Part shown: in pieces, positions 1,102 to 3,625 of the stretch
How the letters are laid out: every line of letters starts with the position of its first letter
Position numbering within the stretch: position 1 is the stretch's first letter
NCBI RefSeq assembly: GCF_045037415.1
Contig: NZ_CP173438.1
Reading direction: 5' to 3' (one strand)
Source: Escherichia coli
Lineage (GTDB): Bacteria; Pseudomonadota; Gammaproteobacteria; Enterobacterales; Enterobacteriaceae
DNA length: 64,000 nt
The notes under the pieces: model-generated
Seen by the model: the letters and a program-made list of their open reading frames with translations, nothing else
Told to the model about the DNA's origin: nothing
Database searches by the model: none
Position numbers and translations under genes: made by a program

Positions 1102-1186
1102 TACTGACCCGGACACAAAGGACAGGTGGTTGATCTGGATGCTTTCAGAAAACATCGCCAGTGACATAGTGGAAGTTGTTTGGTTT

Positions 1187-1218
1187 ACCGGAAAGCATTG
1201 TGCTTTCCGGTTTTGTTT
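1187..1218 (+). terminator. rho-independent terminator-like hairpin after the XRE regulator gene
   Basis: ACCGGAAAGCA-ttgt-GCTTTCCGGT followed by TTTTGTTT. Confidence 0.45.
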
Positions 1219-1982
1219 CAGAAGTTGCAGATTAGCAGTTCACGGCGCGGCGTGGGTTTACCCGCCAGACTGTAGTTGATATTCACTGTCTGTATGTTCA
1301 GTCCAGTGAACACCTCGCGCATCTGCGGGATGTCGTTCACCGAAATTATCATTTTTCCTCTGATGCACCGGGCCAGCTCTGCCAGCCGCGAGTAGTTCCC
1401 TTCAGGAAAATCCACACCATAGCCTTCCGTACCCAGGTACGGTGGGTCGCAGTAGAACAGCGTGTGCGGACGATCATAACGCTCAATGCACTGTTGCCAG
1501 TCCATGTGTTCTATGACTGTTCTGGAAAGCCGCAGGTGTGCCGCTGACAGTTCTTCTTCAATACGTAGCAGGTTGAAGCGTGGCGGGGATGTGGTGGAGG
1601 TACCGAAGCTGTGCTCTGCCACCTTGCCGCCAAACGCCTGCTTCTGAAGGTAGTAGAACCGTGCCGCACGCTGGATATCCGTCAGTGTTTCTTCCGGGGT
1701 GATCTGCAGCCATTTGTAGATCTGACGGCTGACCAGCGCCCATTTGAACTGGCGGACAAATTCTTCCAGGTGATGCTTTACCACCCGGTACAGATTCACC
1801 AGTTCACCGTTGATATCATTGATGACTTCGATCTTGCCGGGTGTCTTAAGAAAATAGAGCGCTGCTGCCCCACAAAACGGCTCCACATAACATTCATGCG
1901 CCGGAAACAGCGGCAGAATGTGTTTTGCAAGGCGGCGTTTGCCACCAATCCACGGCACGATGGGTAATGTCTGCATTTTCAT
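1218..1982 (-). CDS. DNA adenine (N6) methyltransferase, Dam family
   Basis: ORF-track 1218..2072 trimmed to the MKMQTLP start (AAGG upstream); motifs WIGGKRRL, EPFCGAAALYF, DPPY typical of Dam/D12-class MTases. Confidence 0.85.
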   Translation of the reverse strand: MKMQTLPIVPWIGGKRRLAKHILPLFPAHECYVEPFCGAAALYFLKTPGKIEVINDINGELVNLYRVVKHHLEEFVRQFKWALVSRQIYKWLQITPEETLTDIQRAARFYYLQKQAFGGKVAEHSFGTSTTSPPRFNLLRIEEELSAAHLRLSRTVIEHMDWQQCIERYDRPHTLFYCDPPYLGTEGYGVDFPEGNYSRLAELARCIRGKMIISVNDIPQMREVFTGLNIQTVNINYSLAGKPTPRRELLICNF

Positions 1983-2172
1983 AATCTGCAAGCCTTTTAC
2001 AATTATTAAAAAATATGGCAGTCTGGTCAGGTCTCGCGAGACTGACTGAACCTTGGTCGGCTCACAGCGCATTCCTGTGGGGCGATGACCAGCCCGGCTT
2101 TCGGGTGCCGGGCTGGTCGTTCTTTCATGATGCGGCAGGGATGGCGGGATTTCTGTTAATGTGGTTTAGGGA

Positions 2173-2388
2173 TTATCCGGGGCGATTTTCTGACCTTATC
2201 CGGTCCAGGGCATAAGTAATACCTTCTGCAAAAACAGAAGTATCAAACTGCTTTTGTATTCCCTGAAAATGAAAAGCGGCACGACAGACACTCAGTTCTC
2301 CGCGGTATAACCGGATAATATCTTCCAGAACATTGTTCACTGCTTCAGCACGGCGCTGATGTTCTGTTAACGTTAATCGGGGATTCAT
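2173..2388 (-). CDS. hypothetical protein (71 aa)
   Basis: ORF-track entry; strong TAAGGAG 7-8 nt upstream of ATG on the minus strand. Confidence 0.5.
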   Translation of the reverse strand: MNPRLTLTEHQRRAEAVNNVLEDIIRLYRGELSVCRAAFHFQGIQKQFDTSVFAEGITYALDRIRSENRPG

Positions 2389-2791
2389 GATGCACTCCTT
2401 AAATGATGATTTTTATGTACTCACCGGCAAAATATTCTGCCGATTACTGAACACGCATCCGGCACCTCAGGTTTTGATTTATTCTGGTTTTTTCGATATC
2501 CCGGACCAGGTTGATCACGACCAGAAAAAGTGCCGGTGTTTTATTGATACGCTGATATGGCTTCGGGATAACAGCTATATTCGTTACTCTCAGTTGCTGG
2601 CTGTGGGAGCGGCTGATGTCGTCCTCACGGAAAAAACGCTCTGTCTGCTCAATGCCATGCCGACCTTTCTGCAGCCCCGGCCCGTACCATTTAAAGAGTC
2701 ACTTCTGGATGCAGTAAAAACCGGTGAAAATGCAGTCATCGCTGAATGCGTATCCCGGATTATGCGTTACGTGTTTAATGAACGTAAGTGA
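2387..2791 (+). CDS. hypothetical protein (134 aa)
   Basis: ORF-track entry with plausible coding composition; its start codon overlaps the start codon of 2173..2388(-), so one of the two calls may be wrong. Confidence 0.35.
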   Translation: MMHSLNDDFYVLTGKIFCRLLNTHPAPQVLIYSGFFDIPDQVDHDQKKCRCFIDTLIWLRDNSYIRYSQLLAVGAADVVLTEKTLCLLNAMPTFLQPRPVPFKESLLDAVKTGENAVIAECVSRIMRYVFNERK

Positions 2792-3495
2792 GGTTTATCC
2801 GCTGTCTGCATAATCCCGATAGCCAGTGCGAGGGGAAGTAATTCCGGGGAAACTCTTTCAAACAGCGATGCCCATTCTCCTCTCGCCATCACTCTGTCCA
2901 GCCCGCCCTCCAGTTGCATTTCAGCAATCTTCCTGATTTCCCGGAACAACGCCGCTTTGATCTCTTCATGCTCAGCTTTATTTTCCGGTGTCAGAAGGTA
3001 TTCGTCGAAGAACCGGGGAGGCTGGTTAATCGGGATGTGTTCCTGTTTGCCGTACTTCGGGGACGAACAACATTCTGTTGACTGACCAGTGAGTTTACGT
3101 AACTCCTTCATGAGCAGCTCCTGATCGTAAACTGTCATCAGTGCCGCAATGGTGGCATGCAGTGCATCGGGCAGTATCCAGGGTTGCCGGCCCGTGGGGC
3201 ATATAACATCCAGCAGCTCATTCGTCCGACAGATACGCTCCTCGCCGTATGACAACAGGCCCTGTCCCGTGTATTCCTCCAGCCTGATCACTGTGCCAGC
3301 CCGTGGTTTCTGCCATGTGCTCAGATCATCCCCACTCATACGGCGCTCACCGTCCACGTCTGCGGCGTCGACAATGACGCTGTTTCCGAATTCCTGTTTC
3401 ACCACTTCCTCTATTCGCGCCAGTACGTAACTTTTACCGCTGCCCACAGGACCGGACACGGTGACAGTGATGACCGGATTCAGTGTCTGCGTCAT
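2767..3495 (-). CDS. P-loop NTPase of unknown function
   Basis: 242-aa ORF with Walker A GPVGSGKS and a candidate Walker B VIVDAAD; GAGGAG-type RBS upstream; 3' end overlaps the convergent ORF 2387..2791. Confidence 0.65.
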   Translation of the reverse strand: MTQTLNPVITVTVSGPVGSGKSYVLARIEEVVKQEFGNSVIVDAADVDGERRMSGDDLSTWQKPRAGTVIRLEEYTGQGLLSYGEERICRTNELLDVICPTGRQPWILPDALHATIAALMTVYDQELLMKELRKLTGQSTECCSSPKYGKQEHIPINQPPRFFDEYLLTPENKAEHEEIKAALFREIRKIAEMQLEGGLDRVMARGEWASLFERVSPELLPLALAIGIMQTADKPHLRSLNT

Positions 3496-3625
3496 ATCGT
3501 ATTCTCCTCTGTGAATAATTCATCGTTTATCCTGCACATCCCGTATCCCCGGCTCTCTTAACGCGCTTTAAAATCCTTCGCGCCCTGTATTTGTGATGCT
3601 GTCTCCACCAGATAAGGAGACACAC

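Follow-up and report, generated by a model that had tools for sequence, protein, structure and literature searches.

What do the genes that a transposable prophage carries between its immunity repressor and its lysis operon do, and do they belong to one system? The question is raised by a block at positions 1102-3625 of a 64,000-nucleotide stretch of Escherichia coli DNA (RefSeq assembly GCF_045037415.1, contig NZ_CP173438.1), which at its full length is called the window. The block holds four open reading frames (ORFs): a leftward gene for an adenine methylase, a leftward gene for a 71-amino-acid (aa) protein (P71), a rightward gene for a 134-aa protein (P134) and a leftward gene for a 242-aa protein with a Walker A motif (P242). 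All features are collected in Table 1. By comparison with related prophages, the block is a variable cargo slot that extends from the immunity/repressor gene to the lysis/late operon. As to its function, we lean towards a reading to which we give a little less than an even chance, namely that the slot holds two separable units, an orphan methylase and a leftward modular Walker-A gene that is gated by a nested winged-helix regulator, P134. We are highly confident of the descriptive part of this account (the slot, the reality of the genes, their families, the domain limits, the nesting and the dispensability of P134) and modestly confident of the mechanism.

The cargo is widespread because about one tenth of the complete E. 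coli genomes in the collection carry the prophage, the pandemic sequence type 131 (ST131) clone included. It is otherwise uncharacterised, apart from a bioinformatic description and reverse transcription PCR of the methylase.

A variable cargo slot in a BcepMu-like prophage

Among the relatives, for which a survey of 79 loci was made, at least eight distinct repressor-to-holin arrangements were found, in which conserved flanks enclose variable content, as is characteristic of hot spots and of morons. The preliminary description of the block, made from the DNA letters, had placed an accessory block between the regulatory module and the lysis/late operon, and relatives indeed carry quite different cargo at the same place. 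One variant contains the methylase gene only (locus L006; loci are cited by number), and another combines it with the gene of a 188-aa protein (Klebsiella KP12). Genes for proteins of 328 and 193 aa accompany a truncated Walker-A gene in L004, and genes for proteins of 328 and 203 aa occur with a DUF2441 gene in L005. A Walker-A gene followed directly by the methylase gene is found in L008, L009, L014, L059, L061 and L062, and L007 adds a second P134-like gene to the arrangement seen in the window. In BcepMu itself, the slot is occupied by three unrelated rightward genes, gp18-20.

The right border is conserved. In seven variants, including those of Klebsiella and Serratia (alignment A5), the segment in front of the putative holin gene contains the invariant elements TTAA.GC..TTTAAAA and GATGCTG.CTCCA, followed by a ribosome-binding site (RBS) and the ATG. 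This segment (~3551-3625) is probably the late (lysis) promoter, dependent on a Mor/C-type activator; the promoter scan of 3496-3625 gave no sigma-70-like site in either direction.

The slot is another case of the hot-spot principle known from P2/P4 and from lambda morons, here in a transposable phage. As in the P2 old/tin hot spot and in lambda-type morons, conserved flanks surround swappable cargo that is often placed on the opposite strand. It differs in its flanks, which are the immunity repressor on one side and the presumed late lysis promoter on the other, and profile searches recognised no defence system in it.

The host element is a BcepMu-like transposable prophage (Bcepmuvirus) that equals prophage Phi2 of strain EC958. 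Its 3.5-kb region is 100% identical to that of Escherichia phage PhiKM, which is classed as Bcepmuvirus, and was matched in 635 of the 5,426 complete E. coli genomes (491 of these with at least 80% coverage), many of which belong to ST131. In E. coli E41-1 (L001), this ST131 prophage adjoins ycaL, and its early operon runs leftward from the repressor as in BcepMu, with genes for Ner-like, IclR-like helix-turn-helix (HTH), DUF3102, DDE transposase, ExeA-type ATPase, Gam, GemA and Mor proteins. The earlier label of a Mu-like prophage needs correction, as the element is not Mu proper: given the Bcepmuvirus class and the leftward early operon, the frame of comparison is BcepMu rather than Mu, D108 or SfMu.

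When P242 and P134 were compared by tblastn with 50,697 phage records, PhiKM was matched, and P2-like phages were matched for P134 only. In INPHARED, a collection of GenBank phages, P242, P134 and P71 had no homolog beyond PhiKM, save for the P134 relatives in P2-like phages, and the Walker-A domain occurred in PhiKM only. With homologs confined in this way, none of the three corresponded to a conserved, functionally known gene of the Mu middle region, which is the finding that the preliminary description had named as fatal to its proposal. The preliminary description had proposed that the methylase may substitute for a missing com/mom module; no com or mom gene is annotated in the PhiKM record, of which the annotation was consulted. 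The literature on PhiKM or BcepMu-like E. coli prophages yielded nothing on these slot genes.

Four genuine genes

Each of the four ORFs proposed earlier is present and matches a PHROG family: phrog_56 for the methylase (1.5e-100), phrog_4490 for P71 (7e-53), phrog_2266 for P134 (2.6e-44) and phrog_3787 for P242 (4.9e-170). Ratios of nonsynonymous to synonymous substitution rates (dN/dS) against diverged orthologs were 0.04-0.11 for the methylase, ~0.18 for P134 and 0.19-0.32 for P242 (0.13-0.17 in its N-terminal domain), and 0.3-0.6 for P71, where the value comes from few substitutions. Together, the family matches and the purifying selection indicate that all four ORFs are genuine genes. Their supposed common orientation, opposite to the late genes, applies to the three leftward genes and fails for P134, which is oriented like the late genes themselves.

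The weakest of the alternatives, which we consider most improbable, is that P134 and/or P71 are chance antisense ORFs within a single leftward operon. Their overlapping start codons leave no space for a conventional promoter between them, and the dN/dS of P71 is relatively high, as would fit such ORFs. However, both proteins belong to PHROG families and both genes have Shine-Dalgarno sequences, that of P71 being a strong one (AAGGAG) situated within the opening codons of P134. In Serratia, P134 has an ortholog of 52% identity (dN/dS 0.18), and relatives of 26-33% identity occur further out, in other BcepMu-like prophages and in P2-like phages, with dN/dS of 0.05-0.18 across these groups. Orthologs of P71 occur in Serratia and other prophages, P71 is homologous to a module of P242 (see below), and the small partner gene next to the P134-type gene in P2-like phages shows dN/dS of 0.11-0.21 and is present in 41 of 41 loci.

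Nested gene architecture

The P134 gene lies on the strand opposite to its two neighbours, nested between P71 and the 3' end of P242. Its own 3' end overlaps that of P242 by 25 nt; at the other end, the start codons of P134 and P71 overlap or abut (CATGATG at 2386-2392). In Serratia prophages, the slot has the order methylase (-), 73-aa protein (-), P134 ortholog (+), 89-aa protein (-) and holin (+), with the same overlaps as in the window; the 89-aa protein is equivalent to no more than the final ~75 residues of P242 and has no Walker-A domain. This C-terminal portion, here called the W-module, is also the C-terminus of proteins P0043 and P0053, whose genes are again convergent with a P134-type gene. 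Altogether, the three-part arrangement recurs with the same overlaps at protein identities of 52% and ~30%.

When the P71 family was aligned with the W-module family by hhalign, a probability of 95.4% was obtained (E 1.9e-8, 57 columns). By this comparison, P71, a small helical protein, is a free-standing, paralogous copy of the W-module that ends P242. In the viral contig L060 (3920-4864; IMGVR_UViG_2534681707_000006), one 314-aa protein contains the N-terminal Walker-A domain, an 'ITTDDL' module and a pair of W/P71-like modules, and it has the appearance of P242 and P71 before any split. The simplest reading of these gene orders would be that a modular gene was split by the insertion of a winged-helix gene on the opposite strand, which left P242 and P71.

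The Walker-A mini-domain of P242

P242 had been presented as a Walker-A P-loop NTPase. Its Walker A sequence, G15-P-V-G-S-G20-K21-S22, agrees with GxxxxGK[ST], and the motif is, judging from its conservation, real and selected; an NTPase fold was detected neither by profile searches nor by Foldseek, and the designation as a P-loop NTPase was to that extent overstated. Among 1.84 billion representative sequences, 60 relatives were found, which, except for close orthologs, share residues 1-76 only. This mini-domain occurs either as free-standing proteins of 73-90 aa or as the N-terminus of proteins of 177-364 aa, whose C-terminal parts are mosaics of short helical modules, several of them also represented as separate PHROGs. 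In an alignment of 34 sequences, G20 and K21 are invariant and I28 nearly so, followed by W61 (33 sequences), G15 (32), S/T22 (31), P64 (30) and E50 (29). A Walker-B-like acidic residue is partly conserved, D/E being found in 23 of the 34 at the last position of VIVD43 and in 28 at D46.

The profile and structure searches that had been suggested returned, for P242, matches to the Walker A region and no NTPase fold. Pfam matches cover 25-40 residues at E values of 0.011 or above, and profile matches to the PDB cover 20-40 residues of the β1-P-loop-α1 segment only, including that of the designed phosphate-loop protein 6c2u. The AlphaFold2 (AF2) model has a predicted local distance difference test score (pLDDT) of 94-97 for residues 10-70 and is poor elsewhere (mean 67.7). 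A complete α/β NTPase core was not recovered, the Pfam and PDB matches being partial and the best Foldseek match having an E value of 5.8 with a model that is weak outside residues 10-70.

Similar to P-loop kinases, ABC ATPases and 6c2u, the mini-domain places GxxGxGK[ST] after a hydrophobic strand and before an amphipathic helix. In contrast to P-loop NTPases, it is only ~75 aa long, has a signature of its own (E50/W61/P64), exists free-standing at 73-90 aa and shows no conserved Walker B; its profile matches, which include CMP kinase, ABC ATPases, PilT and 6c2u, do not extend beyond β1-Walker A-α1. The mini-domain would be of interest to researchers in protein evolution if it folds and binds phosphate ligands alone, as designed P-loop prototypes do. 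By analogy, the fusion of various short modules behind a constant head recalls the polyvalent or modular phage proteins reportedly treated by Iyer et al. in 2017, although the modules of P242 are much smaller.

In other BcepMu-like prophages, the Walker-A gene is likewise the first gene divergent from the holin gene, with the methylase gene directly next to it. Truncated 158-aa Walker-A proteins without a W-module stand beside unrelated cargo in L004 (2756-3232) and L053-L058, and the misleading RefSeq label 'ABC transporter ATPase' on such truncated copies rests on the Walker A motif alone. Distant mini-domain proteins of 196-257 aa were also seen beside arrays of DUF7941 genes on metagenomic phage contigs of ~48-141 kb (L011 and L012), and the mini-domain is therefore not limited to transposable prophages.

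P134 and its start-overlapping partner

For P134, a winged-helix fold extended by C-terminal helices is predicted. The best AF2 model (pLDDT 73.7; predicted template modelling score 0.71) has H-β-H-H-β-β topology, followed by these C-terminal helices. Compared with winged-helix regulators of the MarR, PadR, Rrf2 and IclR types, P134 has no sequence family membership and an extra pair of C-terminal helices, and its top fold matches include protein-binding and Z-DNA-binding winged helices. None of seven P134-family members matched a Pfam family, a PDB profile search with the family gave no match, and a profile search with the P134 alignment in a set of 5.8 billion proteins added no members. Pfam did not confirm the label 'DUF2513' that UniRef attaches to the Serratia ortholog. 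In L007 (2066-2446), L025 and L049, another, diverged gene of the P134-like winged-helix type lies on the plus strand between the methylase gene and P71, and the gene order thereby alternates -,+,-,+,-.

In P2-like loci from IMG/VR (L079-L119), a P134-type gene is paired with a divergent gene for a 63-64-aa protein, and the two starts overlap at CATG in 41 of 41 loci. This pair is under purifying selection (dN/dS 0.05-0.21, with the small partner at the values given above), and the small partner carries a conserved NNDLSSREV...LLNHIRM signature. Its identification as a W-module was rejected (hhalign probability <1%). The pair is located between gpA/DinI and the portal gene, beside Fic and nucleotidyltransferase-like genes, in the cos-proximal gpA-cos-gpQ hot spot of P2-like phages, which is rich in defence systems (Rousset et al., PMC9122126). 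A P134-type winged-helix gene with a start-overlapping small partner is thus common to the P2 hot spot and to the slot described here. This pair is a mobile unit that recurs in phage hot spots, and it may reasonably be proposed as a module for regulation, defence or anti-defence. The mini-domain family, the W-module and the winged-helix/start-overlapping pair are absent from Pfam, NCBIfam and PADLOC and are covered only by PHROGs of 'unknown function'.

The hot-spot location bears on the main rival of our reading, which we regard as unlikely: that the prophage encodes, in P71, P134 and possibly the W-module, an anti-phage cassette for superinfection exclusion or defence that is expressed in the lysogen like the old/tin cargo of P2. 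It would account for the presence of P134-type pairs in a hot spot with many validated defence systems (PMC9122126), for the equally mosaic slot of BcepMu-like prophages and for the transfer of the cassette as a unit between unrelated phage types. On the other hand, PADLOC gave no match at E<=1 for the cassette proteins or their relatives, no effector domain of an enzymatic or membrane type can be recognised, transcription of the adjacent methylase gene is very low in the lysogen (PMC4659465), and P134 has been lost in several lineages.

These losses also count against a second alternative. The preliminary description had suggested that the Walker-A NTPase and its overlapping convergent partner could be a toxin-antitoxin (TA) or abortive-infection (Abi) pair. 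P242 would then be the toxin and P134 (or P71) the antitoxin. The two genes are convergent with a 25-nt overlap, weak matches confined to the Walker A region link P242 to Zeta_toxin (E 0.26) and to KAP NTPases (E 0.047), and winged-helix proteins can be antitoxins, for example AbiEi. However, the P134 gene carries an internal deletion in L048 and L051 and is disrupted in L028 and L047, with the P242-like gene and P71 intact in each case, and the deletion junction is contiguous, again with P242 and P71 intact, in at least eight complete E. coli genomes from different hosts. The supposed antitoxin is thus lost while the toxin stays intact, which makes a TA pair not credible. The parts also occur separately: Walker-A proteins are found with no P134 in L008, L014, L059, L061 and L062, and P134 is found with no Walker-A domain in Serratia prophages and P2-like phages, which contradicts obligate co-occurrence. 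In addition, no toxin, antitoxin or Abi profile was matched in PADLOC, Pfam or NCBIfam, where searches with P71, P134, P242 and 7-34 of their relatives returned nothing beyond Walker-A-only matches, and the conserved Walker-A domain is only 75 aa long with no detectable NTPase fold. We consider the TA or Abi explanation very improbable, and the tempting label has been removed from the block as unsupported.

The methylase as a separate unit

The methylase starts most likely at position 1982, which is also the RefSeq start; the resulting length of 254 aa agrees with the 254-256 aa of its orthologs. Its assignment to the Dam family, as first proposed, was confirmed by full-length profile matches and by motifs. 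It scores 116.6 bits against TIGR00571 (cut-off 114.85) and 371 bits against the PADLOC profile MTase_II PDLC03253, which covers residues 4-252 and thereby the full length, and its orthologs carry PF02086. The nearest solved relatives are DpnM and E. coli Dam (EcoDam), with which the S-adenosylmethionine (SAM)-binding motif EPFCGAAALYF and the DPPY motif FYCDPPYLG align. On these grounds it is a bona fide N6-adenine DNA methyltransferase of the D12/Dam family.

Full-length profile matches and the SAM and DPPY motifs are shared with E. coli Dam, DpnM and T4 Dam of the alpha group of D12 enzymes. In contrast, the relationship to EcoDam itself is only distant (55 bits), and the methylase sits in the cargo slot of a transposable phage. 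Against the Dam equivalog NF008152 it reaches 67 bits, far from the cut-off of 441. EcoDam K9 and R124, which contact GATC, align in HMMER with P and A in the methylase, the alignment of the recognition hairpin being uncertain.

By its coordinates, the methylase is M.EcoMIV (EC958_1101; 1,031,787-1,032,551 of EC958) of prophage Phi2, an element whose invertible tail-fibre segment lies at 1,005,540-1,007,607 of EC958 (PMC4134206). Forde et al. located a D12-class orphan methylase on Phi2, found its transcription to be significantly (far) below that of dam in mid-log lysogens in LB, and assigned no motif of the EC958 methylome to it (PMC4659465). The methylase is thus a known member of a known family, and both its D12 domain and its low expression in lysogens are already published (PMC4659465). 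Its target and timing would complete the methylome picture of ST131.

Among the neighbours of the methylase, no nuclease or restriction endonuclease profile was matched, and for lack of a nuclease-like neighbour it is considered an orphan. The same negative speaks against taking all four genes as one methylase-centred unit, such as a restriction-modification-like or methylation-dependent system. That possibility derives some appeal from the adjacency and co-orientation of Walker-A and methylase genes in several BcepMu-like prophages and from a weak match of the methylase to the methylase component of PD-Lambda-5 (E 5.8e-16). Nevertheless, the methylase gene stands by itself in L006 and beside unrelated genes in KP12, and the cassette occurs with no methylase (L035 and L036) or with methylase fragments (L037 and L038), so that we judge a single unit to be very unlikely.

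Proposed functional model

In our preferred reading of two separable units, the first is the methylase, which would be made during lytic growth and mark the phage DNA as it replicates, so that this DNA withstands restriction in the host infected next. Such marking in the lytic phase is suggested by the strong constraint on the methylase, which is kept in most relatives under strong purifying selection, together with its low transcription in lysogens.

The second unit would be a leftward gene that starts beside the late promoter and encodes a constant Walker-A head, behind which short helical modules are exchanged. Insertion of the winged-helix gene P134 between two module copies would have produced P242 (mini-domain, middle part and W-module) and P71 (a free W-module). 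P134 may act as a DNA-binding regulator that gates the leftward genes by repression and/or by head-on transcription, the latter being suggested because any transcript of P134 must run opposite to P71 and the last part of P242. Face-to-face promoters in P2/186-type phages form switches through transcriptional interference; by analogy, the opposed and overlapping units of the slot could be mutually exclusive. The Walker-A/module proteins, of which the mini-domain may bind phosphate or a nucleotide, would act on functions of the host or of competitors (takeover, anti-defence or exclusion) rather than as phage replication enzymes. We infer this role of accessory effectors from the constant head with shuffled modules, the phage-only distribution and the hot-spot location.

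Several observations count against this model of a gated modular gene and an orphan methylase. The natural variants described above show P134 to be dispensable, and any gating role is therefore not essential. No convincing promoter for P242, P134 or P71 was given by the promoter scan, and no convincing operator-like repeat for P134 stands out in the repeat scan. Only one of the five AF2 models of P134 is confident. DSSP assigns no β-strands to the AF2 model of the mini-domain despite its high confidence, and no structural neighbour was found, so that even the fold class of the mini-domain is unsettled. The hot-spot location is as compatible with defence as with anti-defence or regulation, and the published transcript level of the methylase (PMC4659465) refers to one condition in one strain.

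A bolder proposal, which we find more doubtful than an exclusion or defence cassette, is that the mini-domain is a natural, autonomously folding minimal P-loop protein and that the winged-helix/start-overlap pair is a portable toggle or exclusion module. If so, the mini-domain, which is free-standing in many phages, would bind a phosphate-containing ligand such as a nucleoside triphosphate, a nucleotide signal or nucleic acid and serve as the constant head for modules aimed at the host, perhaps to sequester or sense nucleotides in phage-host conflict, and the winged-helix pair would work through obligatory antisense transcription common to the hot spots of P2-like and BcepMu-like phages.

Feature coordinates and minor observations

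Table 1. Coordinates of the slot features and flanking genes in the window
Feature	Position	Strand	Basis and remarks
Repressor-type HTH gene (left flank)	745..1101	+	RefSeq helix-turn-helix; HTH_3/Phage_CI_repr Pfam matches at orthologous positions in relatives
Hairpin with T-run, terminator behind the repressor gene; left slot border	1187..1211	+	11-bp stem with 6 GC pairs, then TTTTGTTTC
Methylase gene	1218..1982	-	254 aa from probable start 1982; longest ORF 1218-2072; ORF list, RefSeq
Weak sigma-70-like promoter candidate	2002..2030	-	CTGACC-17-AATAAT, 9/12 positions; just upstream of methylase start
Perfect 12-bp inverted repeat, 8-nt loop	2087..2118		Upstream of methylase gene; T-rich on the + side
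P71 gene	2173..2388	-	71 aa; ORF list
P134 gene	2387..2791	+	134 aa; ORF list; real start may be the second ATG at 2390
P242 gene	2767..3495	-	242 aa; ORF list
W-module of P242 (C-terminal)	2770..2994	-	Residues 168-242 (core 178-231); end overlapped by P134 3' end
Middle part of P242	2995..3267	-	Residues 77-167; helical module common to the C-termini of P0037, P0039 and P0062; low AF2 confidence
Walker-A mini-domain of P242 (N-terminal)	3268..3495	-	Residues 1-76 (75-aa); sole part conserved across ~50 clusters
Divergent control region	3496..3625		Right ~75 bp (~3551-3625) conserved in every slot variant; right slot border
Putative holin gene, first gene of lysis/late operon	3626..3976	+	RefSeq; orthologs with Pfam Holin_2-3

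Promoter and terminator scans remained at background level, with the exception of the strong terminator at 1187-1211, and an Rfam scan of 900-3800 gave no RNA family. Read directly from the sequence, that hairpin has no T-run on the minus strand, and leftward transcripts of the methylase gene might therefore run antisense into the repressor gene. The promoter candidate at 2002-2030 is a consensus match only, as such sites are about as numerous in the region as expected from shuffled sequences. Since the methylase-only variant L006 shares the inverted repeat at 2087-2118 (alignment A5), the repeat is taken as part of the methylase segment and not of the P71/P134 cassette; it may be an insulator or a terminator for rightward transcription. 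Short direct repeats around P71 (TTCATGATGC, two copies) are at about chance level for 1.7 kb.

In the divergent control region, a second conserved element, CATCCTGCA, is located at ~3529-3537, close to the start of the leftward gene. The mechanical ORF of the putative holin begins with GTG at 3593, and both RefSeq and the conserved RBS put its start at the ATG at 3626. Outside the slot, an IS66-family element (ISEc23) splits the large terminase gene of the E41-1 prophage (L001, 17984-22065), and the copy of this gene in the window (6529-8124) is undamaged.

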